64,000 nucleotides of DNA from a virus (IMGVR_UViG_3300046528_000120:1-64000), one strand, 5' to 3'. Counted from the stretch's first letter, positions 6,014-42,156 are shown. Program-made: numbers and translations. Notes: generated by a model from the letters alone, not told the origin.

Positions 6014-6691
6014 ATGCGTGTTCTCCGCACCCCGCCGGCCCCGCGCCGGCCCGCCCGCATCATCCGCGCCGCGCCAGTCGCCCAGGTCCGCGTGCTCGGT
6101 ATTGATGCAAGTCTAAGTTCGACCGGCTACGCCTACCGCTACCGTGGCGCCGTAGTCACAGGCTCGATCCCTACTAAGAAGATGTCGGGAATGGCGCGCC
6201 TGGAGCATGTCCGTTCTATGCTGGAGCAGATTGCCGACCGTTGCCAACCAACCTTTATTGTTTTGGAGGACTACGCCAAGGGTAAAGGCGGCCTGGGGCG
6301 CACGTTCGACATCGGCGAACTAGGCGGCATCATCAAACATTATTTCTTCCTGCGCGGAATTGATGTTATGCTTGTCTCACCGACGACGTTGAAGATGGCA
6401 ATCACAGGGCGTGGCAATGCCGACGCCGCCCAGGCCGTCGCGGGCAGGAAGACCAAAGTAAAAGACAAAACCAAACCGGAGATGCGCGCCGCGCTGCGGA
6501 ACACGTTCGGCATCGTCACCGACCAGGGCGACGAAGCGGACGCCGCTGGCCTCATGCTACTTGGCGAGATACGCCAGAGCGCCGGCACCGTTCCGCGCTC
6601 GGTTCAGTCCAAGCTGCGGCTTCACTCTTTACGCGATTGCGTTATTATTCAGTCGTCGCAACGAACTTTGAAATTGATTGCAGCGAGATAG
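6014..6691 (+). CDS. RuvC-like Holliday junction resolvase
   Basis: VLGIDASLSSTG, VLED, GELGG, PTTLKMAITGRGNA, DEADA. Confidence 0.85.
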   Translation: MRVLRTPPAPRRPARIIRAAPVAQVRVLGIDASLSSTGYAYRYRGAVVTGSIPTKKMSGMARLEHVRSMLEQIADRCQPTFIVLEDYAKGKGGLGRTFDIGELGGIIKHYFFLRGIDVMLVSPTTLKMAITGRGNADAAQAVAGRKTKVKDKTKPEMRAALRNTFGIVTDQGDEADAAGLMLLGEIRQSAGTVPRSVQSKLRLHSLRDCVIIQSSQRTLKLIAAR

Positions 6692-6702
6692 ATTCAACTG
6701 AG

Positions 6703-6732
6703 TTGCAGCAAAACGAGAAATTCAAGTAATAT
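6703..6732 (+). promoter_or_regulatory. Putative sigma70-like promoter
   Basis: TTGCAG-18 bp-TAATAT upstream of the H1-like gene; same geometry as 50548 and 58663. Confidence 0.4.
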
Positions 6733-6793
6733 GCAGTCCTCGGCTAACGAATCACCTGGAACAACTTTTTAAACCTCTACTTGGGATACCACC

Positions 6794-8161
6794 ATGGCAA
6801 CCGCAAACAAAGCAGCCCCGAAAGCAGCAGCAAAGACCACCGCAACCAAGCCGGCCGCAAAAGCTGCACCGGCAGCAAAAACAGCTCCGGCAGCTAAAGC
6901 CGCCCCAGCCGCTAAGCCCGCAGCAAAAGCTGCTCCGGCCCCGGCAGCAAAGCCGGCCGCGAAGCCCGCCGCGAAAGCCGCACCGAAAGCCGCCGCCGAG
7001 CCGGCCGTGCCCGATACCCTGGACGTTGGCGTCGTCGTCCTCTTCAACGGCTACGATGCCGAGACCCCGGAGGCCGAGCGCCTGATCCCGGACGGCCACC
7101 GCGCCGAAATCCTCGAAGTGGTCCCGGACGAGAACCCGGAAAACACCAGCTACGTCATCCGCGTGCCGAACCCCGACTTCAACCCGGGAGTGGCCGAAGA
7201 CGACGCCACCAACCCGGCCGAAATCGAAACCTCGGCATTCGGCTTCGAGCTGACCATCGACGGAGACCAGACCCCGGTCAACGCCGGCGCCGCCCCGGTC
7301 GAGACCCCGGCCGCTGAGCCGGTCAAGAACGGCCGCAAGAAAGTCGCCGCTGCCAAGACCACCGCAGTCGAGACGCAGGAACAGCCGGCCAGCGATGAAC
7401 TGCCGGAACTGGCGCAGGAAGACGAAAACGTCCTCGCCCTCGTCGCCGAAGCCGAGCAAGTCGAAGGCGGTCTGGTCGGTATCGCCCAGGGCCTGGAACT
7501 GGACATCGAAACCAAGAACTTCCAGCTCGGCGGCGTCCTGTACCACATCAAGCGCGACGGCTCCTACAAGGAACTGGACGAGCGCTATGCGGAAGCCAAG
7601 GGCTTCGATGCCTTCGTCGCTGACCACTTCGGCTTCTCGTACCGCAAGGCGATGAACCTGATCGACATCTACGTCGCCTTCAACCAGCTCGGCATCGAAG
7701 ACGCCGGCAACGTGGTCGCCGAGATCGGCTGGACCAAGGCCTCGAAGCTCGCCGTTGCGATGGACGACGAGAACGCCCTGGAACTGATCGAACTGGCCCG
7801 CAACAACACCGTCGAAGGCCTGACCGATGCGATCAAGTCGGCCAGCGTCGAAGTCGGCGGCACGCCGGGCGAGAAGAAAACCCGCGTCACCATGAAGTTC
7901 CGCTTCTGGGAAGACGAAGGCAAGGCCCTGGAAGACACCATCAAGGAAGTCCAGGAAGCCCAGGGCCTCAAGACCCCGGACGAAGCGTTCGCCTTCATCG
8001 TGACCGAGTTCAAGATGGCCCAGGGCGGCGAAGCCCCGGTCACCGAAGCCCCGGCCCAGGTCGCCCCGGCAACCCGCGCTGGCGCCGCCCGCCCGGCAGC
8101 GAAAGCAGCAGCGAAGCCGGCAGCGCGTCCGGCACGTCAAGCCGCGACCGCCGCCGCCTAA
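6794..8161 (+). CDS. DNA-binding protein with histone H1-like PAAK tails and a DUF3102-like helical domain
   Basis: N- and C-terminal (K/P)AAK repeats; central LGGVLYHIK…GFDAFVADHFGFSYRKAMNLIDIY; strongly biased codon use. Confidence 0.75.
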   Translation: MATANKAAPKAAAKTTATKPAAKAAPAAKTAPAAKAAPAAKPAAKAAPAPAAKPAAKPAAKAAPKAAAEPAVPDTLDVGVVVLFNGYDAETPEAERLIPDGHRAEILEVVPDENPENTSYVIRVPNPDFNPGVAEDDATNPAEIETSAFGFELTIDGDQTPVNAGAAPVETPAAEPVKNGRKKVAAAKTTAVETQEQPASDELPELAQEDENVLALVAEAEQVEGGLVGIAQGLELDIETKNFQLGGVLYHIKRDGSYKELDERYAEAKGFDAFVADHFGFSYRKAMNLIDIYVAFNQLGIEDAGNVVAEIGWTKASKLAVAMDDENALELIELARNNTVEGLTDAIKSASVEVGGTPGEKKTRVTMKFRFWEDEGKALEDTIKEVQEAQGLKTPDEAFAFIVTEFKMAQGGEAPVTEAPAQVAPATRAGAARPAAKAAAKPAARPARQAATAAA

Positions 8162-8185
8162 TCGGCCAGTAGTGCAGTAACCAGG

Positions 8186-8221
8186 ATGGGGGCGCTCTTC
8201 GCGGGGCGCTCCCATTTTTTA
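8186..8221 (+). terminator. Rho-independent terminator
   Basis: ATGGGGGCGCTC-loop-GGGCGCTCCCAT followed by a T run. Confidence 0.65.
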
Positions 8222-8239
8222 CGTCTAGGAGATTTCCAC

Positions 8240-9001
8240 ATGGCAACCAGTGCCCGTACCCCACATACCACGCGCGCCCCGGCGCGCTCTGCAATCAATC
8301 GCAACGCTGCTGCCGCTGCGGTCGCATCGACCGTGACCCCGCCAGACTGGGCGCGCCGTCGCCTTGAAATCCAGTATCTCGCCATCGACGACATCGTGCC
8401 GTACGAATGGAACCCGCGCGACAATGCCGAAGCGGTCGCCGCCGTCGCCAACTCGATCCGCCTGACCGAAGGCTTTGGTATGCCTATCGTCGTGGACGCC
8501 GATAACGTCATCATCGCCGGCCATACCCGCGTCGAGGCCGCGAAAGTCCTGGGCCTCCTGGAAGTCCCGGTGGTCCGCCTTGACCACCTCAGCCCCGAAG
8601 CCGTCGCCGCCTTCCGTATCGTCGACAACAAGGTGGCCGAGCAAGCCCGGTGGGACTTCGACATGCTCGCGTCCGAACTCGGCAAGCTGCGCGATAGCGG
8701 CATCGAGTTCACCGATTACGGCTTCAGCCAAGGCGAGCTGGATTGCATGTCGCAGATCGTTGCCGAAGATTGCCTGTCCGTTACCCAGTTGACCCCGGTC
8801 GCTGAGGAAGCCACCGCCGCCCACGTCGCCGCCCAGGGCACGCGCGCCCCGACCCGTACCCGCATTGTGGTCGGTGAGATGGTGCAATTCGTCGACGCCC
8901 CGGTCTACCGGAGCTGGATGAACGGTATCCGTGAGCTGTGCAACTTCGACGAGGCCGCGATCAACGCCGAACTGCGCCGCCGCCTCGGCATTCCAGGGTA
9001 A
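8240..9001 (+). CDS. ParB/Srx N-terminal domain protein
   Basis: IVPYEWNPR…GFGMPIVVD…IIAGHTRVEAA…AFRIVDNK…WDFDML; AGGAG RBS. Confidence 0.88.
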   Translation: MATSARTPHTTRAPARSAINRNAAAAAVASTVTPPDWARRRLEIQYLAIDDIVPYEWNPRDNAEAVAAVANSIRLTEGFGMPIVVDADNVIIAGHTRVEAAKVLGLLEVPVVRLDHLSPEAVAAFRIVDNKVAEQARWDFDMLASELGKLRDSGIEFTDYGFSQGELDCMSQIVAEDCLSVTQLTPVAEEATAAHVAAQGTRAPTRTRIVVGEMVQFVDAPVYRSWMNGIRELCNFDEAAINAELRRRLGIPG

Positions 9002-9005
9002 CTCG

Positions 9006-9230
9006 ATGTTCCGCCTATTCGCCCTCTCGGTGCTGCGCTTGCCCTACCTCTTCCTGCTGTGCCCGATTATCTTCGCGCTCCGCAGGATCGGTGCCATGTG
9101 CATCACCGTCGAGGCCTGGGCGCACCGCACGCATGACAAGGTCCAGTCCCACGCCATGCGCTTCATCGACCGCGCCCAAGCTGATCTCAAACTCCTGAAG
9201 GAAAAGAGCAATGCGCACCGTACGCCGTAA
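9006..9230 (+). CDS. Small hydrophobic hypothetical protein
   Basis: Fills the gap between the ParB genes; hydrophobic N-terminus. Confidence 0.45.
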   Translation: MFRLFALSVLRLPYLFLLCPIIFALRRIGAMCITVEAWAHRTHDKVQSHAMRFIDRAQADLKLLKEKSNAHRTP

Positions 9231-10755
9231 CCCGCGAGCCGCCGCGCCCGCTGCAACCGGTATCCAGATGGTGGATACCTACAGCCTCACCCCGGACAAG
9301 ACCAACCCCCGAAAGCCGGACCCGGCCCGCCTGGGCTTGCTGCGTCTCTCGATTGCAAAGCTAGGCTTCTTAATGCCGGTATTTGCGGCGAAGTCGACCG
9401 GACTTCTGCTGTCAGGTCACCAGCGTCAGACCGTCTCGAAGGAATTGGAATTGCCGCAAATTCCGGTGATGTACGTGGACATCAAGGACGATGACATTGC
9501 CGGCGTCAACATCCTGTTCAACCGCACCACCAACGACTTCGGCGCGTTCGACACTGGCTCGGATGCCAAGAACAAACTCGACATCGAAGCGGTGATCGCA
9601 GCGGCTGAGGAATTGCCGGATGCGGACCCGGACAATCCTTTTGCAATCAATTGCAAGATGGAGACGATTGCACCGATCCTGGCCGCGAACAGCGATGCCT
9701 TCAACGACAAGGCCGCCAGCCAAGCCCAGGCGATCCTGCGGATGGGTATCAAGATTCCGGCCGTGGTCTCGAAGTCAGGCGTGATCGTCAACGGCGTCCA
9801 CCGTTTGTTCGGCGCAGCCGGCGCCGGCATGACCGAGTGGCCTATCGTCCGCGTGCCGGATCAGATCGCCAGCGTCGCGACCAACTTCCTGAACTACCTG
9901 TCGATGGACTTCCACGTCGACGACGACTTCAAGGCGCTGATTCGTCACTCGGCCTACCGCCGCCCGCAGAACAACCGGGGATCGCTCGGTAAGTCGTATC
10001 GGTTCTGGGCGAATGGTGAGCGCACCCTGATGGACCGTGACAGCTACGGCCCCGAGTTCTTCGCCAAGTTCCGTGACATCCACGGCCAGACCATGCTCGA
10101 CTTCGGCGGCGGCCTGTGCCAGTCGGCTCCGTACCTGCGTGAGAAGGGCTTCGACGCCTACGACTTCGAGCCATTCCGCATCGACCCGGATAGCGGCGTG
10201 GGCGTGCCATCGCCGGACTACTCCAAGCGCAAGGCCAGCGAGTTTTTGCAATCAATTGCAAGCCCGAAGCTGAAGTTTGATTCGATCTTCCTGTCCTCGG
10301 TCCTCAACAGCGTGCCGTTCGCGGAAGACCGCCTCGTCGTCCTCGCCATCGTCCACGCGCTGTGCGGCCGGAACACCACGGTGTATGGCACCTGCCGCGA
10401 CATCTCCGACTTCAACTACGAATACGGTGGCATCCGCAAGGCCAACTACTTCACCTTCGATACGGAACCGGGCGTGCGCGTGGGCGACGTGATGCGCAAC
10501 CCGAAGATTCAGAAGTTCCACACCAAGGAAGAGGCCAAGGAGATGTTCCACCGTTTCTGGAAAGAAATTGATTTCTGGGACGGCGGGAATGTATTCTACT
10601 GGCGCCTGCGCGCACCGATGGGATTCCGCCCTGACGTGGTAAGCAAGGCGCTGGAGCTGGAGTTCGACTTGCCGTACGCCGATGGCACCACGATGGGGCT
10701 GGTGGCGGAAGCCAAGAAGGCATTCGGCCGGCGCCTGGGCGTGACCTTGAAATAG
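9211..10755 (+). CDS. Tandem ParB-like domains fused to a class I SAM-dependent methyltransferase-fold domain
   Basis: NPRK…GFLMP…LLSGHQR; a second ParB-like IPAVV…IVNGVHR; MTase motif I MLDFGGG, YDFEPF, FDSIFLSSVLNSVP. Confidence 0.85.
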   Translation: MRTVRRNPRAAAPAATGIQMVDTYSLTPDKTNPRKPDPARLGLLRLSIAKLGFLMPVFAAKSTGLLLSGHQRQTVSKELELPQIPVMYVDIKDDDIAGVNILFNRTTNDFGAFDTGSDAKNKLDIEAVIAAAEELPDADPDNPFAINCKMETIAPILAANSDAFNDKAASQAQAILRMGIKIPAVVSKSGVIVNGVHRLFGAAGAGMTEWPIVRVPDQIASVATNFLNYLSMDFHVDDDFKALIRHSAYRRPQNNRGSLGKSYRFWANGERTLMDRDSYGPEFFAKFRDIHGQTMLDFGGGLCQSAPYLREKGFDAYDFEPFRIDPDSGVGVPSPDYSKRKASEFLQSIASPKLKFDSIFLSSVLNSVPFAEDRLVVLAIVHALCGRNTTVYGTCRDISDFNYEYGGIRKANYFTFDTEPGVRVGDVMRNPKIQKFHTKEEAKEMFHRFWKEIDFWDGGNVFYWRLRAPMGFRPDVVSKALELEFDLPYADGTTMGLVAEAKKAFGRRLGVTLK

Positions 10756-10922: not shown

Positions 10923-11012
10923 AATTGTGTCCACCAATTGTGGACGAGCAACGTTTCCTTGCGGTATTCTGTGGCCTGTCAATCCCCCATCGAATACTGC
11001 AAGGAGACTTCC

Positions 11013-11420
11013 ATGCAAGACCAGCAAAATCAGCAGGCCGGCGCTACCGTAGTCCTCGCTGAAGGCGACCGCATTATCTCTGGCAATATCACCGCCAGCC
11101 AGATAGCGGCCCTATCCCTCCCTACCCTGCCCCCGATGTATCCCATCACTGGCGCACGTACCCTCTCCGAAGAGGAAGTCGCGCTGATGAACGAGATCAA
11201 TCACATGGGAGATCAGGTGCACGCCCTCATCGAGAAAGTGCGCGGCCTGCACATGACCGACATCGCCCGCAGTCACGGCAACCTGGAAGACGGCAGCAAG
11301 ATCAGGGAACTCGCCCGCCTCGTCGAGCAGGGCCAGCACTGGCGCATGCGCGCCGTCGACGATTTGCAAGCCGGCTTCATGAAGCTGAAGCGCGCCGTCG
11401 CGCGTCCGACCAATTTCTGA
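11013..11420 (+). CDS. acb2: Acb2-like nucleotide-signal sponge (anti-CBASS family)
   Basis: ITGARTLSEEEVALMNEI…HW…DLQAGFMKLKRAVARPTNF matches the Acb2 pattern I.GYR.LS.EEI..MN…W……D.Q.G.M…RA.A.P..F; AAGGAG RBS. Confidence 0.78.
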   Translation: MQDQQNQQAGATVVLAEGDRIISGNITASQIAALSLPTLPPMYPITGARTLSEEEVALMNEINHMGDQVHALIEKVRGLHMTDIARSHGNLEDGSKIRELARLVEQGQHWRMRAVDDLQAGFMKLKRAVARPTNF

Positions 11421-11637: not shown

Positions 11638-12372
11638 ATGAACGCCCCTGTACACTTCCCGGCTAACCCGGACAAATTCGAGTTCGATGCTGAAGTCGCC
11701 AAGATTTTCCCGAACATGGCGAAGCGCTCGATCCCGAACTATGAGCAGTTCCACGAGCTGCACGCTGGCATCACCGCCCGCCTGTTCCCGAACGATGGCG
11801 CGCGCATGCTCGACGTTGGCGCATCCCATGGCGCGTTCTTCCAGCACCTGTTCCGCCAGTTCTGGCGTGGCAACGATGCAGTGCCGAAGTACGAGCTGAC
11901 TGCCATCGACACCTCGCCGGCCATGTGCGCCACGCTGCGCACCTTCTTCCCGCAAGCAAAGGTGCTCGAAGGCGACATCACCGACGCCCGCGTCCAGGTC
12001 TTGCTGGCCGAAGCCGGCCCGTACGATGTCGTGAATGCCACCTACGTCATCCAGTTCATCCACCCCGATCTGCAAAAGCGCACCCTTCGCTTCCTGGCCA
12101 GCCTCGTGCGCGAGGGCGGTATCCTGATCCTGGGGCAGAAGGACAAGATCAGCACCTCGCCGCTGAGCGCCCTCGTGAACGAGCGCTATATCGACTGGCG
12201 CGTCGACAACGGCTATACCCGCAAGGAGATCGACGCCAAGACCCGCGCGCTCCAGAACGCCATGTGGCCGATGTACCACGATGTCCTGATGGAGACCCTG
12301 ATGCACCTCTTCCGCGACGTGCAGCAGACCACCCGCACCTTCATGTTCAACACCCTGATCGCCTACAAGTAA
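11638..12372 (+). CDS. cmoA: CmoA-like carboxy-S-adenosylmethionine synthase / class I MTase
   Basis: FEFDAEVAKIFPNMAKRSIPNY, LDVGASHG, AIDTSPAM, EGDI, IQF, GGILILGQK, NGYTRKEIDAKTRALQNAM and FMFNTLIAYK are colinear with CmoA over the full length. Confidence 0.82.
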   Translation: MNAPVHFPANPDKFEFDAEVAKIFPNMAKRSIPNYEQFHELHAGITARLFPNDGARMLDVGASHGAFFQHLFRQFWRGNDAVPKYELTAIDTSPAMCATLRTFFPQAKVLEGDITDARVQVLLAEAGPYDVVNATYVIQFIHPDLQKRTLRFLASLVREGGILILGQKDKISTSPLSALVNERYIDWRVDNGYTRKEIDAKTRALQNAMWPMYHDVLMETLMHLFRDVQQTTRTFMFNTLIAYK

Positions 12373-12373
12373 C

Positions 12374-13261
12374 ATGCCGACCGACGACAATATCCAACCA
12401 GGGCCGCAGCGCATCCTGCGAGGCCGGCGCCGTGCGATGGGCGCGGGCAGCTCGACTCGCACCGAATCGCTGCGCACCAGTGCCGAGCCGGATGAGATCG
12501 ACGATGTGATCGACCCGCATCAGGCCCATGATCGCATCGTGCGCGAGGTCCGTACCCGCCCGATCCCGACCAGCAACCCGCCGCAACTGCCGCCGCCGCA
12601 AGCCGCTGCGCGCCCGACCCAGCGCAATGCGCCACGCAACGAAGGCGACATCCGTGATCCGCGCGACCGCATGGAGCAGGTGGCGATGGCCGGCAGCGAA
12701 GCGTATTCGCGCGAGTACCGCCAGACCGTGATCGGCCGCATGCTGATGCGCGGCATCCCGCTGGATCAGATCGCCGTCGAGCTGGGTTGTTCGGTCTCGA
12801 CCATCGAGAAGGACCGCGCCGCCTGGAAGCAGCGCTTGCGCGAGAGCGCCCGCCAACTGGACATCAACGAGATCATCGGCGGCCAGAGCGCGATGTACAG
12901 CGAGCTGTCCAGCATGGCGTTGCGCGTCGCCACCAACGGTGACACTCCGACCCCGATGCGCCTCGCCGCCATGCGCACCACCCTGGCCGCCGAGGCAGAT
13001 CGTACCCGCTTCCTGAATACGGCCGGCGTCTTCGATGTCCTGCGCTACCGCAAGTCGGAAGACGGCACCGATGTGTCCGATGTCCAACTGCTGATGGGCC
13101 GCACCGACGAAATGATTCAACGCCTGTTGGTAGACGAAGCACCACCGGCCCGCCCGGCGCGCGTCAACCGCACCCCGCCCCGCCGCGCTGGCGGCTTCGC
13201 TCCGATGACGATGGACGACCGCGCCGCCAGCAGTGGCGATGCCGAGAACGTCGAGCTGTAA
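12374..13261 (+). CDS. Terminase small subunit (HTH)
   Basis: HTH GIPLDQIAVELGCSVSTIEKD; immediately upstream of the large subunit. Confidence 0.7.
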   Translation: MPTDDNIQPGPQRILRGRRRAMGAGSSTRTESLRTSAEPDEIDDVIDPHQAHDRIVREVRTRPIPTSNPPQLPPPQAAARPTQRNAPRNEGDIRDPRDRMEQVAMAGSEAYSREYRQTVIGRMLMRGIPLDQIAVELGCSVSTIEKDRAAWKQRLRESARQLDINEIIGGQSAMYSELSSMALRVATNGDTPTPMRLAAMRTTLAAEADRTRFLNTAGVFDVLRYRKSEDGTDVSDVQLLMGRTDEMIQRLLVDEAPPARPARVNRTPPRRAGGFAPMTMDDRAASSGDAENVEL

Positions 13262-13282: not shown

Positions 13283-15253
13283 ATGGAAACCTTAGAGAAG
13301 ATCAAGAAGTGGGTCAACAAGAAGCTGACCCAGCGCCAGGAACGGTTCCTCGCCGAGGTGCGCGCCCAGGCCGATGAGCTGCAAAACAAGATGTTCGCCG
13401 ATATGTACTATGCTTCGGTGGAGCAGCGCTTGCGCTACGGCGACGACACCCTGTTCCGCTTCATGAATGACCTGGAGCGCACCCCGGTCGACATCGAGAC
13501 CTTCCTGGATTCGCCCGAGTTCCTGGGAGCGACCGACATCAGCATCTGGCCCGAGGTGCGCCAGACCCTGATCGACATCAACGGCAAGTGGTGGACCGGC
13601 ATCGACCGCGAGCGCTCCGGCGCTGCCTACAACGGCGCTACCCTGATGGGCGCCACCGGTACTGCGAAGTCGACCATCTCCATGATCTCGACCATGTACC
13701 ACTGCTACCTGTGCTCGTGCCTGAAGAACCCGCAAGCATGGTACGGCCTGCCGAAGAACACCTCCATCGTGTTCGCGATCATGGCAGCGAAACCGCACGT
13801 CATGAAGAAGGTTATCTACGTGCCGATGCGCAAGTACATTACGCAGATGCCGTACTTCCAGAAGCACATGATGCCGGACAAGCTGATCGAGTCCGAGATG
13901 TACTTCGTCGAGAAGAACATCCGCATCGTGCCGGCTGGCGGCGACGAAGACGCGATCCTGGGTGAAGCAATCATCGGCGGCATCGTCGATGAAATTAATT
14001 TCATGAACGTGGTCCTGCGCTCGAAGAAGGCCGAAGTGACCAGTGGCCGCGCCGGCATGTACGACCAAGCCGAGCAGGTGCACTCGACCATGACGCGACG
14101 TAAGCGTGGTCGTTTCACACGCCCCGGCCCGATGATCGGCATCGTGTTCGCTTCATCCTCCACCCGCTACAAGGGCGACTTCACCGACAAGCGCAAAGCC
14201 AAGGTGGACGATGGCACCCTGAAGTCCGAGTTCATCTACAACCGCCGTCAGTTCGACGTGGTGCCGCAAGAGCGCTTCAGCGGGGCCAAGTTCCGCTTCA
14301 TGATCGCCAACGATGCCCAGCACGATAGCCGCGTCCTGCGCGACGACGAGACCAGCCCACCGGGCGCCTGGGTCATCGAAGTGCCACGCGAATACCTGGA
14401 CGACTTCCTGACCAAGCCGTACGACGCCATGCGCGACGTGCTCGGCATCTCGAACAATGCGCTGTCGCCGTTCATCAAGACCCGCCACAAGGTCAGCGAG
14501 TGCGTGGAAGCCGGCGAAGCCTACGGCCTCGAATCGTTCCTGACCCGCGACCACGTCATCCTTGGCGAGCATGGCATGCCGCGCGTGAAGCAGGACCACT
14601 ACTGCATGAATCCGTCGCGCCCGCGCTTCGTGCACATCGACTTGTCGCGCAACGGTGACCGCTGCGGTATCGCCATGGTGCGCTTCGAGGGCATGATCGA
14701 AGTGGCGCGCGGCGTCTCCGGCAAGAACGGCCAGCCGCTCCGCGAACTGCTGCCGGTCGGCGTGGTAGAGATGGCTTGCACCATCAGCCCCGATGCCAAC
14801 AACGAGATCGACGTAGCCGAAGTGCGCGCCTTCGTGCGGCACCTGAAAGACAAGTATGGCTACCCGATCAAGGCCGTCACCTACGATAACGTGGACAGCC
14901 GCGAATCCATCCAGCAGTGGCGCAAGTCGGGCATGCGCGCCGGCCAGCTCTCGGTCGACCGTGGCAGCGCTCACTACAAGCAGTTCCGCGATGCCATGTA
15001 TGACGTGCGCGTGTTGCTGCCGGATGACAGCCTGCTGATCACGGAAATCCTCGACCTCGAATACGACGAGGACAAGGACAAGGTCGACCACCCTGTCCAT
15101 GGCACCAAGGACTGCGCCGACGCCGTGTGCGGCGCGTACTGCTCGATGCTTGAACGCAAGTCGACCTGGACCGCAGCCGCCAGCGATGACCAGCATTTCG
15201 TCGAGAACCAGCGCGCTGTCTTCGACGACCGTTTTGATGAACCCCGCCGTTAA
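13283..15253 (+). CDS. terL: Terminase large subunit
   Basis: Walker A GATGTAKS, Walker B GGIVDE, RNase H-like FVHIDLS…D, DHPVHGTKDCADA. Confidence 0.92.
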   Translation: METLEKIKKWVNKKLTQRQERFLAEVRAQADELQNKMFADMYYASVEQRLRYGDDTLFRFMNDLERTPVDIETFLDSPEFLGATDISIWPEVRQTLIDINGKWWTGIDRERSGAAYNGATLMGATGTAKSTISMISTMYHCYLCSCLKNPQAWYGLPKNTSIVFAIMAAKPHVMKKVIYVPMRKYITQMPYFQKHMMPDKLIESEMYFVEKNIRIVPAGGDEDAILGEAIIGGIVDEINFMNVVLRSKKAEVTSGRAGMYDQAEQVHSTMTRRKRGRFTRPGPMIGIVFASSSTRYKGDFTDKRKAKVDDGTLKSEFIYNRRQFDVVPQERFSGAKFRFMIANDAQHDSRVLRDDETSPPGAWVIEVPREYLDDFLTKPYDAMRDVLGISNNALSPFIKTRHKVSECVEAGEAYGLESFLTRDHVILGEHGMPRVKQDHYCMNPSRPRFVHIDLSRNGDRCGIAMVRFEGMIEVARGVSGKNGQPLRELLPVGVVEMACTISPDANNEIDVAEVRAFVRHLKDKYGYPIKAVTYDNVDSRESIQQWRKSGMRAGQLSVDRGSAHYKQFRDAMYDVRVLLPDDSLLITEILDLEYDEDKDKVDHPVHGTKDCADAVCGAYCSMLERKSTWTAAASDDQHFVENQRAVFDDRFDEPRR

Positions 15254-40648: not shown

Positions 40649-41549
40649 CCGGCCGACGCCGGAGCGCCGCTTCGTCCTGTTGCCGGGTCCAGTGCTAAGC
40701 GCGCATGACGGACAGGCGCATATCATCGACGCCTCTCGGCTTGGCATGCTGTACCGTCTCCGGCCGAACGAGTATTACATCCTGAATCCGGTCGATTACA
40801 GGCGCGCCACCGCCACCCAGGTCGGCGACCACCAGCTAAGGATGAGCGGGTTCCTGCTTCAGGGCATCATGCCGCTGAGGCCGCGCGAGACCGGCGACTA
40901 CGATGCCTACCGCCAATGGGTCGAAACAAACTGGCGCGAGGCGATCCGCCGTGAGATGGAGCAGTTCGACATCGAGATGAGCCGGCCGCCATCGGCCGAA
41001 CAGAGAATCAACAACCAGAGAGAACAACGACGTGAACAAGACGCACACAACTGGCGCGGAGTACGAAACTTCGGCGGCCTCCCCCTCGACGCCCGCATCC
41101 GCATCCCACGACCGCGCGTGCAGCCCAGCGACAACGGCTACGGCTTCCGCTTCCAGCTCGACGCGACCGAGTGGGAACAGCTCGTCAACGACGAAGGCGG
41201 GCAAGGTCTCAGCCGGGAAGAAGTCGCGCGGCGGCTCGACGAAAGTGGGCGCGCCCGCCCAAGCAACCGGCAAGACGAGTGGGAACAGGCCATTGCCTTT
41301 CTACTCGCTGGAGGCGCCGACACCGACCAGTTCACGCCGGGCGTCGTCGAAAGCGTCCGCCGCCTCGACGCTGAAGAACTCAGCGCCCTCGCGCGAAGTG
41401 ACAGTGATCAAGGGCAACCGGGCGGGCCTGCGCAGCAAGATGCTGGCAGCGTTCCACCAGGACACGATCAGCGCAGTGCAGAGAGCGCAGCAGATGATCG
41501 CGCAGCACGACTTCTGGCCGGTCGCGCTCCCCGGCGGCTCAAGCGGTAA
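40641..41549 (+). CDS. Hypothetical protein
   Basis: PGPVLSAHDGQAHIIDASRLGMLY pattern; 3' end overlaps the next gene. Confidence 0.65.
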   Translation: MVSRPTPERRFVLLPGPVLSAHDGQAHIIDASRLGMLYRLRPNEYYILNPVDYRRATATQVGDHQLRMSGFLLQGIMPLRPRETGDYDAYRQWVETNWREAIRREMEQFDIEMSRPPSAEQRINNQREQRREQDAHNWRGVRNFGGLPLDARIRIPRPRVQPSDNGYGFRFQLDATEWEQLVNDEGGQGLSREEVARRLDESGRARPSNRQDEWEQAIAFLLAGGADTDQFTPGVVESVRRLDAEELSALARSDSDQGQPGGPAQQDAGSVPPGHDQRSAESAADDRAARLLAGRAPRRLKR

Positions 41550-42156
41550 ATGGACGGTGTATCAGGCCACGGTGTCGCCGGAGAAAGCCATGATGGACAG
41601 CCTCAAGCACTGCATGGCGGGCTTCCCAGAGATGAGCGTCAGCCCTGGCACCTACACGGTCCTGGCGCGCGCCACCACGCACGGCCCCGAGGTGATGATG
41701 TCCAACACCCAGTTCGAGTACCGCACCAACATCGAGTTCGTCGGGCGCGCCCACGGCCAAGTCTTGGTGAACGGGCTGGGCATCGGCATGCTGCTCCGGC
41801 CGCTCGCGGCGCGCGCCGAGGTCGAGCGAATCACCGTGGTCGAGAAGGACCGCGACATCTTGCAATTGATTGCACCGCACTACCAGGACTTGATCGACGC
41901 CGGGAAATTGCGCATCATCCATGGCGACGCCTTTAAGTACGTGCCGGATCAATACTACGATTGCATCATGCACGACATCTGGCCGACCACCAGCACCTAC
42001 AACCTGACCGAGATGATCGCGCTCAAGCGCCGCTACCAGCACCTGATGGCGGGCCGCATCATCTCCCAGCATTGCTGGGCTGAAGAAATTTGCTGGCGCA
42101 TGGCCGGCACCGTCACCACCTTGAAGCAACTGAAACGGAGTATGAAGAATGACTGA
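41398..42156 (+). CDS. Class I SAM-dependent methyltransferase (spermidine-synthase-like fold); start uncertain
   Basis: MMSNTQFE…VLVNGLGIG…ITVVEKD…IIHGDAF…YDCIMHDIW. Confidence 0.8.
   Translation: MTVIKGNRAGLRSKMLAAFHQDTISAVQRAQQMIAQHDFWPVALPGGSSGKWTVYQATVSPEKAMMDSLKHCMAGFPEMSVSPGTYTVLARATTHGPEVMMSNTQFEYRTNIEFVGRAHGQVLVNGLGIGMLLRPLAARAEVERITVVEKDRDILQLIAPHYQDLIDAGKLRIIHGDAFKYVPDQYYDCIMHDIWPTTSTYNLTEMIALKRRYQHLMAGRIISQHCWAEEICWRMAGTVTTLKQLKRSMKND

Follow-up and report, generated by a model that had tools for sequence, protein, structure and literature searches.

A phage genome encodes a 455-residue protein, H455, immediately ahead of two proteins with ParB N-terminal domains (ParB253 and ParBMT514), and copies of a 16-bp palindrome lie inside and just upstream of these genes. 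Do they form one system, in which H455 finds the sites and the ParB proteins act from them, or two systems that happen to be neighbors? A first-pass annotation of the window, the whole stretch of 64,000 nucleotides of viral DNA that was analyzed, had favored the former, proposing a split ParB that loads a DNA-modifying enzyme at the sites. The answer depends on what the sites look like, what H455 is predicted to be, and which of these elements keep company in other phages.

The dispersed sites and the H455 gene

The motif is a duplex with TGCA half-sites (TTGCAATCAATTGCAA). Allowing up to three mismatches, 73 sites are present in 103 kb, where chance would give ~0.2 per 64 kb. They lie ~1.4 kb apart and, as the first-pass annotation had remarked, are spaced more evenly than random (CV 0.615 vs 0.98, p = 5e-5), with an orientation bias of 51:22. 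Non-coding DNA is touched by 31 of the 73, vs 17.5% expected (p = 5e-7), an enrichment at gene boundaries. About half of the sites are found deep within ORFs, tape-measure-sized genes included, and force LQSIA or AINCK peptides there. Each half-site decays on its own, with no compensating change in the other, and this speaks against an RNA hairpin. The four copies originally reported around H455 and the ParB genes are all present, and the features of this region are as follows.

6668..6683, minus strand: motif copy CTGCAATCAATTTCAA, 2 mismatches, within the RuvC gene (3' end) and ~110-125 nt upstream of the H455 start codon; candidate autoregulatory operator
6713..6742, plus strand: weak sigma-70-like promoter candidate, TTGCAG-18 nt-TAATAT (TATAAT-like), read from sequence
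6794..8161, plus strand: H455 gene, ORF of 455 aa, judged real
8177..8222, plus strand: intrinsic terminator after H455, hairpin then U-run, -26 kcal/mol, z = -5.1
8289: motif copy, 2 mismatches, inside the ParB253 gene
9641 and 10246: motif copies, both exact, inside the ParBMT514 gene

H455 had been described as a strongly codon-biased gene with its own promoter and terminator. Its codon-usage score per codon ranks fifth of the 99 genes of at least 100 aa, alongside the capsid genes; this bears out the codon bias and suggests that the protein is made in abundance. The terminator likewise stands, as a strong hairpin with a U-run, and was not picked up by a consensus terminator scan. The promoter stands only in part, since the TTGCAG/TAATAT candidate is present but weak, falling below the threshold of a consensus sigma-70 scan.

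The site ahead of H455 recurs in related phages. Of 66 related loci, 41 have a motif copy at -200 to -20 of the H455 gene (4.4 expected); when they are collapsed into lineages at 50% identity, 13 of 25 have one. The same interval holds a copy in 0-6 loci for nine neighboring genes, and ahead of ParB253, ParBMT514 or the large terminase gene it holds none in 44-46 loci. In one relative (L051), 8 nt separate the site from a consensus TTGACA box. An upstream site implies that the motif's reader regulates H455; it does not identify H455 as that reader.

Across a very large phage family, the motif takes the general form TGCA-N6-TGCA, which, exactly or nearly so, is the leading palindrome in most related loci and genomes, with inner bases that vary by lineage. 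Searching by motif alone turned up four motif-rich contigs of 60 kb or more, and all four encode H455. H455 is also the only non-enzyme among the eight proteins common to five distant genomes with the motif (G000, G002, G003, G004 and G005), the others being two helicases, RecA, an exonuclease, an AAA ATPase, PolA and a DnaG-like primase. Hosts of the related phages include Pseudomonas, Stenotrophomonas, Vibrio and Aeromonas, and this diversity, together with the phage-specific inner bases, argues against a host reader. H455 is thus probably the phage's own reader of the ~70 dispersed palindromic sites. The first-pass annotation had cast it in this role, and the co-occurrence, the upstream site and the predicted ParB/KorB-like and ribbon-helix-helix (RHH) folds described below support it. 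The co-occurrence of H455 and motif is partly phylogenetic.

H455 could instead be a site-specific global transcription regulator, KorB-like or like a stoperator repressor, that acts at promoters and as a roadblock and builds no structural coat. Such a role fits the gene-boundary enrichment, the conserved site by the H455 promoter, the layout of all genes of the phage on one strand, and the temperate lifestyle of the relatives DLP5 and DLP3 (PMC5834331, PMC7326821). We consider it unlikely, since the many sites deep in ORFs constrain the peptides encoded there, the spacing is regular rather than promoter-tied, the codon score suggests stoichiometric rather than regulatory abundance, and Samunaviruses are reported to be lytic (PMC10281142). 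This reading overlaps the explanation we prefer and is not exclusive of it.

Predicted domains of H455

Composition and structural models divide the protein as follows.

Residues 1-72: histone H1-like Ala/Lys/Pro (AKP) tail; Ala 53%, Lys 18%, Pro 17%, net charge +12
Residues 75-160: SH3/Tudor/KOW-like barrel, then a disordered linker
Residues ~205-350: predicted ParB/KorB-like helical DNA-binding domain
Residues ~362-413: predicted ribbon-helix-helix
Residues 416-455: basic tail, net charge +5

Both the Ala/Lys/Pro-rich (PAAK-repeat) tails and the acidic middle noted at first pass are confirmed by composition and charge, the folded parts carrying net -18 over residues 73-164 and -20 over 201-360. 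The latter value is unusual for a DNA binder. H455 has the long, net-positive Ala/Lys/Pro segments that define histone H1-like AKP repeats, a likeness of composition and not homology; Pfam HC2 matches 4 of 129 and 2 of 45 members of the H455 family, which comprises >5,000 representative clusters.

For the helical domain (domain model pLDDT 92.9), ParB-family DNA-binding domains are 5 of the 12 chains with Z of at least 5. The matches are ParB-parS 6s6h (Z 7.8, 101 residues aligned), KorB 8qa8 (Z 6.7) and 1r71 (Z 6.4), SopB 3mkw (Z 5.2), VirB 3vwb (Z 5.1) and P1 ParB (Z 4.7), and Noc and ParB top an independent Foldseek ranking; every structural match of H455 falls below the level that the tool itself treats as noise (Z < 8; Foldseek E 0.4-3), and the RuBisCO factor Raf1 scores equal to ParB. 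R284 (in YRKA) and W313/K315 (in GWTK) of this domain are invariant among homologues, and L062 and L075 keep both motifs although their top palindromes differ. Residues 362-413 resemble the RHH proteins ArtA (Z 5.2), MazE9 (Z 5.1), Rv0298, NikR, SvtR, AmrZ and TacA, with Z 4.2-5.2 over 43-54 residues and with the RHH strand not formed in the monomer model.

A profile search found no ParB_N (PF02195) in H455, whose N-terminal domain is the SH3/Tudor/KOW-like barrel, and searches for a sequence-level link to ParB HTH, KorB or DUF3102 found none. The helical segment had initially been called DUF3102-like. That label finds no support in sequence: PF11300 gave no match at E <= 1 in 45 H455 homologues and none at E <= 10 in a six-frame genome search, and DUF3102 proteins are ESM Atlas structural neighbors at TM 0.45-0.47, a structural lead only. 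The models suggest a ParB/KorB-type DNA-binding fold combined with an RHH dimer fold.

A different reading takes the sites away from H455 altogether, making it a recombination or replication accessory and leaving the sites to another phage or host factor, or to priming, nicking or modification signals. In keeping with this, the H455 gene always closes a RecA-resolvase-exonuclease-RuvC block, the folded parts of the protein are acidic, the annotation "putative single-stranded DNA binding protein" (SSB) appears in some records, and the ~1.4 kb spacing resembles Okazaki fragment length in phages whose core proteins include a DnaG-like primase. However, H455 has no OB fold, its predicted pairing of HTH and RHH is the layout of a protein that binds double-stranded DNA at specific sequences, primases read ~3 nt rather than 14-bp palindromes, and the upstream-site enrichment is specific to the H455 gene. 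With the diverse hosts and phage-specific inner bases speaking against a host reader and the half-site decay against a hairpin, we regard an accessory role as improbable.

The ParB genes beside the terminase

The genes downstream of H455 lead into the terminase region.

8240..9001, plus strand: ParB253, 253 aa; ParB_N E 1.6e-5; NPRDN, GHTR and DNK boxes invariant
9211..10755, plus strand: ParBMT514, 514 aa; ParB_N E 2.4e-4 with GHQR box; class I SAM methyltransferase, Methyltransf_23 E 7.7e-6
11638..12372, plus strand: MT244, CmoA-like methyltransferase, third member of the ParB module; homologue of Gordonia phage Evaa gp5, E 5e-10
12374..13261, plus strand: HTH-containing 295-aa protein directly before TerL, weak HTH matches, position conserved; possible small terminase subunit
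13283..15253, plus strand: large terminase subunit (TerL); 307 phage records match, annotated terminase large subunit

The genome has only two ParB_N matches (8366-8629 and 9262-9522), and HTH_ParB (PF17762) has no match genome-wide at E <= 10, which agrees with the original description of neighboring ParB proteins that keep G(H/V)xR boxes but show no obvious HTH. A search of the 103-kb genome with PF13614 found no ParA-type ATPase. Beyond ParB_N, ParB253 consists of a Cys-containing linker and a conserved C-terminal beta-alpha-alpha segment, and it is homologous across its full length to Evaa gp1; it matched no HTH family. ParBMT514 joins PF02195 and PF13489 in one polypeptide, with bit scores of 21.5 for ParB_N (below the cutoff of 26.3) and 26.2-27.8 for Methyltransf_23 (cutoff 27). 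It matches phrog_5475 (E 8e-125) and Evaa gp2 (32.6% identity, E 5e-71), and both families are represented together in Atlas clusters. Phages are enriched for ParB-Methyltransf_23 fusions, and ParBMT514 has exactly the ParB_N + PF13489 architecture of the ParB-CTPase-Methyltransf_23 fusions (PMC12704722). An HTH-less phage ParB is known to activate a DNA-modifying enzyme (PMC13229309). ParB253 resembles the 5mYOX-associated ParB of that work in having ParB_N, a conserved C-terminal domain and no DNA-binding domain, and in lying beside a DNA-modification-type enzyme, but the putative partners here are a SAM methyltransferase and a CmoA-like enzyme rather than a dioxygenase.

In a split ParB, H455 would give the DNA-binding and dimerization half and ParB253 and ParBMT514 the NTP-clamp half, loading at the sites and methylating the DNA between them. 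The contents are complementary, H455 having a predicted ParB-like DNA-binding domain without ParB_N and its neighbors the reverse, and all close relatives keep the three genes side by side and in one orientation. An ESM Atlas DUF3102 cluster (TM 0.47) has ParB_N in 39% of its members, and KorB-KorA and 5mYOX-ParB show ParB folds working with separate partners (PMC13229309). Yet the motif and the ParB cluster, which were expected to occur together, are decoupled in both directions, the very observation that the first-pass annotation had named as counting against its model. In three complete relatives (G002, G005 and Vibrio phage SIO-2), the motif and H455 are present and ParB_N is nowhere to be found, while Gordonia phage Evaa has the trio of ParB, ParB-methyltransferase and CmoA-like methyltransferase with no motif sites and no H455 homologue at E <= 1e-8. 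The ParB genes adjoin the terminase, apart from H455, in DLP5, G003, L053, L056 and L063; DLP5 carries the identical motif 38 times, with H455 after RuvC and a ParB gene beside TerL 22 kb off. None of 129 family representatives is a fused ParB_N-H455 form, and the ParB genes have no motif site upstream. We therefore think it very unlikely that a split ParB loads the modifier between sites. ParB253 adjoins ParBMT514 in 44 of 44 loci having both, and in conserved gene neighborhoods H455 goes with RuvC and the ParB genes with the terminase. The ParB genes are part of a methyltransferase module of their own, located by the terminase genes, with no tie to the sites. The heavy DNA modification of DLP5 occurs without ParBMT514.

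Two proposed modules, known site systems and phage biology

On balance, we favor two independent modules that are neighbors here by chance, an H455 site reader and a ParB methyltransferase module. The modeled domain folds, motif statistics, phyletic patterns and conserved upstream site are observed; DNA binding by H455, the head that reads TGCA, the coating and the target of the methyltransferase are inferred. H455 would be a DNA-binding protein of the ParB/KorB type whose CTPase domain was lost or was never there, and its RHH domain would make it a dimer. The two HTH heads of the dimer would read the outer TGCA half-sites, one helical turn apart, leaving the inner 6 bp to drift between phage lineages, and the Ala/Lys/Pro-rich H1-like tails would grip flanking DNA non-specifically. 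The site ~100 nt ahead of the H455 start codon would let the protein control its own promoter. Made in large amounts, it may nucleate a nucleoprotein coat or scaffold at sites ~1.4 kb apart over the whole genome, likely for genome organization, shielding or global transcription control; where relatives are temperate, as with the phagemid DLP5, it may also aid episome maintenance. ParB253, ParBMT514 and MT244 would be a self-contained module by the terminase genes, independent of H455 and the sites, in which the ParB_N proteins, lacking an HTH, serve the fused methyltransferase as NTP-binding partners or as activators.

KorB of the IncP plasmid RK2 is a ParB-family, autoregulated global repressor with 12 dispersed OB palindromes. 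H455 is like it in its predicted ParB-type helical fold and in having many dispersed short palindromes in a mobile genome, one of them by its own promoter. Unlike KorB, it lacks ParB_N/CTPase and a ParA/IncC partner (by the PF13614 search of the 103-kb genome), is predicted to dimerize by an RHH fold rather than a C-domain, has H1-like tails, and would serve ~70 sites in a phage genome, regularly spaced and about half of them intragenic. Chromosomal ParB/Spo0J binds the 16-bp parS and Noc ~70 dispersed 14-bp sites; these proteins give the best structural matches of the helical domain, and here too the sites are 14-16-bp palindromes. H455 differs from them in having no sequence-level homology and no CTP-binding domain, so CTP-gated sliding is impossible within a single polypeptide. 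Stoperators of Cluster A mycobacteriophages are asymmetric 13-14-bp, mostly intergenic sites, 20-30 of them dispersed, bound by the immunity repressor of temperate phages. Shared with them are a phage-encoded putative reader, dozens of dispersed sites, the orientation bias and the gene-boundary enrichment, whereas the sites here are palindromic, regularly spaced, often in ORFs and present also in phages reported lytic. Bacterial H1-like proteins (Chlamydia Hc2, Pseudomonas AlgP/PhaF-type AKP repeats) have Ala/Lys/Pro repeat tails as well, but those of H455 flank acidic folded domains with a predicted site-specific DNA-binding architecture.

Setting the trio apart keeps the ParB-Methyltransf_23 question from being confused with the motif, and as a mobile module by the terminase it offers a concrete model system for the function of these fusions. 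The H455 family is very large and extends to culturable phages with therapeutic use, actual or contemplated (Pseudomonas SM1, PaMx31 and UF_RH6; Stenotrophomonas DLP3 and DLP5; Vibrio SIO-2), which makes the site-reader hypothesis directly testable. If H455 reads the sites, they are a dense, regular array of docking sites for the phage's own protein, kept at a coding-sequence cost; we know of no described phage example. Such a reader would also extend the ParB/KorB story by a branch free of the CTPase and give phages a possible analogue of chromatin. More tentatively, and short of calling it probable, we propose that the family is an unrecognized class of phage 'chromatin': a CTPase-less hybrid of ParB DNA-binding domain and RHH with H1-like tails, autoregulated via a conserved operator, that nucleates at parS-like TGCA-N6-TGCA sites which selection keeps ~1.4 kb apart even in genes, and that organizes or shields siphovirus genomes of Pseudomonas, Stenotrophomonas, Vibrio and Aeromonas.

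The H455 gene and its surroundings

The record that holds the window, as its first 64 kb, is complete (103,099 bp, with direct terminal repeats), and all but one of its ~125 called genes lie on the plus strand. Its closest cultured relatives are the Pseudomonas Samunavirus phages SM1 and PaMx31 (~93 kb), with ~65% DNA identity across parts of the region; the gene order around H455, the 455-aa protein of interest, is identical in SM1. Neither a ParA-type ATPase nor a tyrosine integrase was found in this genome. Of the related phages, DLP5 is temperate and maintained as a phagemid, its heavily modified DNA being cut by only 4 of 36 restriction enzymes (PMC5834331). Lysogeny in DLP3 is stable (PMC7326821), while a lytic lifestyle is reported for the Samunavirus UF_RH6 (PMC10281142).

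Gene order around H455 (window coordinates)
RecA-like protein
Holliday-junction resolvase
Cas4-like exonuclease
RuvC
6794-8161, plus strand: H455
8240-9001: ParB253, a ParB protein
9211-10755: ParBMT514, a ParB-methyltransferase fusion (ParB_N plus Methyltransf_23)
52-aa ORF
10938-11420: 160-aa Acb2-like protein
11638-12372: MT244, a CmoA-like methyltransferase
295-aa HTH protein
Large terminase (TerL)
Thymidylate synthase

The first-pass annotation had described H455 as a strongly codon-biased protein with PAAK-repeat tails, an acidic middle and its own expression signals. The N-terminal 72 residues are indeed 53% Ala, 18% Lys and 17% Pro (net +12), the C-terminal 40 carry a net charge of +5, and the folded parts between these tails are acidic. 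By codon score its gene is 5th of 99, in the company of capsid genes. The terminator was missed by a consensus scan and confirmed by folding (a hairpin of -26 kcal/mol, z = -5.1, with a U-run, 3' of the gene). A promoter candidate is present, albeit weak and unflagged by a sigma-70 consensus scan. The label 'DUF3102-like' fails by sequence and survives as a structural lead only (ESM Atlas neighbours at TM 0.45-0.47).

Predicted fold of H455

We modelled full-length H455 with AlphaFold and, separately, residues 195-415 (pLDDT 92.9).

Features of H455 in the AlphaFold models
Disordered tails, and an SH3/Tudor/KOW-like barrel (residues 75-160)
Disordered linker, with a conserved LPxLExED motif as its end
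Residues ~205-350: helical domain
Residues ~362-413: beta-alpha-alpha unit

The linker end (residues 199-212) is a near-invariant short linear motif, D-x-LP-x-L-x-x-ED-x-x-VLALV, which looks like a partner-docking peptide.

In a search of all of PDB, where as in all structural comparisons of H455 the scores lay under the tools' noise marks and Raf1 scored comparably to ParB, the top match of the helical domain was the Caulobacter ParB DNA-binding domain on parS (Z 7.8), with KorB (Z 6.7 and 6.4), SopB, VirB and P1 ParB among the further top matches, and the C-terminal unit matched ribbon-helix-helix (RHH) proteins such as ArtA, MazE9, NikR, SvtR and AmrZ (Z 4.2-5.2). Noc and ParB also stood at the top of the Foldseek list, in which neither model had a match at E <= 0.001. 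We therefore base the fold assignment on the concordance between hit lists, no single hit carrying it. Neither the sequence nor the family profile gave a genuine match in PDB, and Pfam and NCBIfam searches assigned no family.

At E <= 0.001 the H455 family comprises 5,111 representative clusters. ParB_N was present in 0 of 129 representatives, among which the only other Pfam domain was the H1-like HC2, in 4. Invariant in the family are R284 (in YRKA) and W313 and K315 (in GWTK), which stand at the beginning of two helices in the model and presumably face DNA, judging from ParB structures. Covariation of the GWTK and YRKA helices or the RHH strand residues with motif variants, assessed by eye, gave no clean pattern. 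In these models H455 most likely lacks a CTPase domain and combines a DNA-binding domain like that of ParB and KorB with an RHH fold for dimerisation and H1-like tails.

The dispersed motif and its probable link to H455

The 16-bp palindrome TTGCAATCAATTGCAA, generalised as TGCA-N6-TGCA, has 73 copies at <=3 mismatches in 103 kb, and the four that had been reported near H455 and the ParB genes lie where they had been placed. The even spacing remarked on earlier was borne out (CV 0.615 vs 0.98 for random placement, p = 5e-5), the widest interval being 3.6 kb, and orientation is skewed 51:22 (p = 0.0009). Non-coding DNA is touched by 31 of the 73 copies against 17.5% expected, and intragenic copies translate to LQSIA or AINCK. 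One copy, at 41860, falls within another methyltransferase gene (41032-42156; phrog_15480, E 3.7e-35), distant from the ParB genes.

The half-sites decay independently of each other (TTTCAA, TTGAAA), so the motif fits a protein site on DNA and not an RNA hairpin. We rejected the hairpin because these changes break pairs without compensation and because, across phages, the stem is conserved and the 'loop' varies. Among relatives the two outer TGCA, spaced by one helical turn, are conserved and the inner bases depend on lineage; DLP5 carries the identical motif in 38 copies. Such a pattern, with fixed outer and free inner bases, is typical of sites for a dimeric HTH protein. The consensus sequences of the host factors IHF, CRP/FNR, sigma-54 and NtrC appear to mismatch the motif in spacing or half-sites, and these readings were dropped.

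Motif variants in related phages and loci
SM1: TGCAAGCGTTTGCA
L048: TGCAGGTACCTGCA
L053: TGCAACCCGTTGCA
L020 group: TGAAATCGATTTCA
G005: TGCAGA-N2-TCTGCA
G002 (complete 77.5-kb relative, L198-L201): TGCAAC-N-GTTGCA, spacer shorter by one base, 30 copies

When IMG/VR was queried with the exact 16-mer, without use of the protein, several multi-copy contigs were recovered. A homologue of H455 is encoded by all four that are 60 kb or longer; the multi-copy contigs lacking one are fragments with an estimated completeness of 13-56%. We also compared this genome with four distant, complete or near-complete genomes, G002 to G005 (GC 40-63%), in which motif sites are numerous (G002, G003, G005) or weakly present (G004). 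Just eight proteins are common to all five genomes. H455 is the one non-enzyme among them; the seven others are two helicases, RecA, an exonuclease, an AAA ATPase, PolA and a DnaG-like primase. The shared polymerase, of family A (94499-97384 of this genome, outside the window), carries at its N-terminus a domain of the uracil-DNA-glycosylase superfamily (PF03167, E 2.2e-11).

Of 66 related loci, 41 have a motif copy at -200 to -20 from the start codon of H455, against 4.4 expected from the site density of each locus itself. The same interval holds a copy in 0 to 6 loci for each of nine conserved neighbour genes, among them ParB253 (0/45), ParBMT514 (0/44) and TerL (0/46). With loci collapsed at 50% identity, the H455 copy is present in 13 of 25 lineages, and it is kept despite a changed motif in SM1, DLP5, HJ05, L048 and L053; in G002 a TTGACA box stands 8 nt away from it. 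In having a conserved site at its promoter, H455 resembles autoregulated site-specific binders such as KorB and ParB. Strictly, the upstream copy proves only that H455 is controlled by the reader of the motif.

The ParB genes and the reader of the motif

As first described, the two ParB proteins keep their ParB boxes (ParB_N domains with GHTR in ParB253 and GHQR in ParBMT514) and show no obvious HTH, with no genome-wide match to PF17762 at E <= 10. Residues 130-290 of ParBMT514 were scanned and contain no second ParB_N. Fusions of a ParB-CTPase fold to Methyltransf_23 are reported to be enriched in phages (PMC12704722), and a phage thymine dioxygenase is activated on double-stranded DNA by its cognate ParB, which has no DNA-binding domain (PMC13229309).

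ParB253 has invariant Cys residues in a DC...DDCL motif (residues ~160-180) and a conserved beta-alpha-alpha segment at 200-253 (RRAP.TARFV.GE..FF...YR.W..G.R....E..I...LKRRLG), which could be an RHH-like or dimerisation domain. MT244 (TIGR00740, E 1.7e-23, below cutoff) is conserved alongside the ParB and ParB-methyltransferase genes, Gordonia phage Evaa included, which suggests carboxy-SAM-type chemistry for the module that these genes form. The 160-aa protein has a match to PF24729, the Acb2/Tad1 hairpin domain (E 1.1e-6), and is possibly an anti-CBASS/Thoeris nucleotide sponge inserted in the ParB-methyltransferase-terminase block.

The first-pass annotation had proposed a split ParB system in which H455 reads the sites and the neighbouring ParB proteins load there and modify the DNA between them. 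For the ParB genes, both patterns that it had named as refuting this model occur: motif and H455 are present in relatives without ParB genes, and Evaa has the ParB genes with no H455 at E <= 1e-8 and no sites.

Occurrence of H455, sites and ParB proteins
G002 (77.5 kb, DTR): H455; 36 TGCA-N5-TGCA; no ParB_N
G005 (108 kb): H455; 30 TGCA-N6-TGCA; no ParB_N
Vibrio phage SIO-2: H455; 9 sites (control 1); no ParB_N
Gordonia phage Evaa: no H455 at E <= 1e-8; 0 sites in 61 kb; ParB gp1 and ParB-methyltransferase gp2

The Evaa genes for gp1, gp2 and gp5, counterparts of ParB253 (E 8e-11), ParBMT514 (E 5e-71) and MT244 (E 5e-10), adjoin its terminase. An IMG/VR search with the single ParBMT514 protein returned close relatives only, and the distant distribution comes from a GenBank phage search. 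H455 always follows RuvC and the ParB genes always accompany the terminase block, at a distance of 3-22 kb from H455 in L053, L056, L063, G003 and DLP5; the adjacency in the window is therefore a junction of two modules. Complex predictions of H455 (75-415) with ParB253 (alignments A1 and A3) gave an ipSAE of 0.00 in both runs, which is evidence neither way. That H455 loads a ParB-borne modifier at the sites seems to us unlikely. By occurrence and gene neighbourhood, ParB253, ParBMT514 and MT244 make up a separate module next to the terminase, of a kind described recently.

The reader half of the proposal is supported by the fold, the co-occurrence and the upstream copy, and the loader half is not supported, given G002, G005, SIO-2 and Evaa. 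The main weaknesses of the reader assignment are that the structural scores are sub-threshold and that the putative DNA-binding domain is acidic. On balance we favour H455 as a probable dimeric, autoregulated reader of the TGCA-N6-TGCA sites, and its abundance and the regular site spacing suggest that it would dock on or coat the genome as a whole rather than control single promoters. The short-spacer palindrome of G002 offers a natural variant for how such a reader measures the distance between half-sites.
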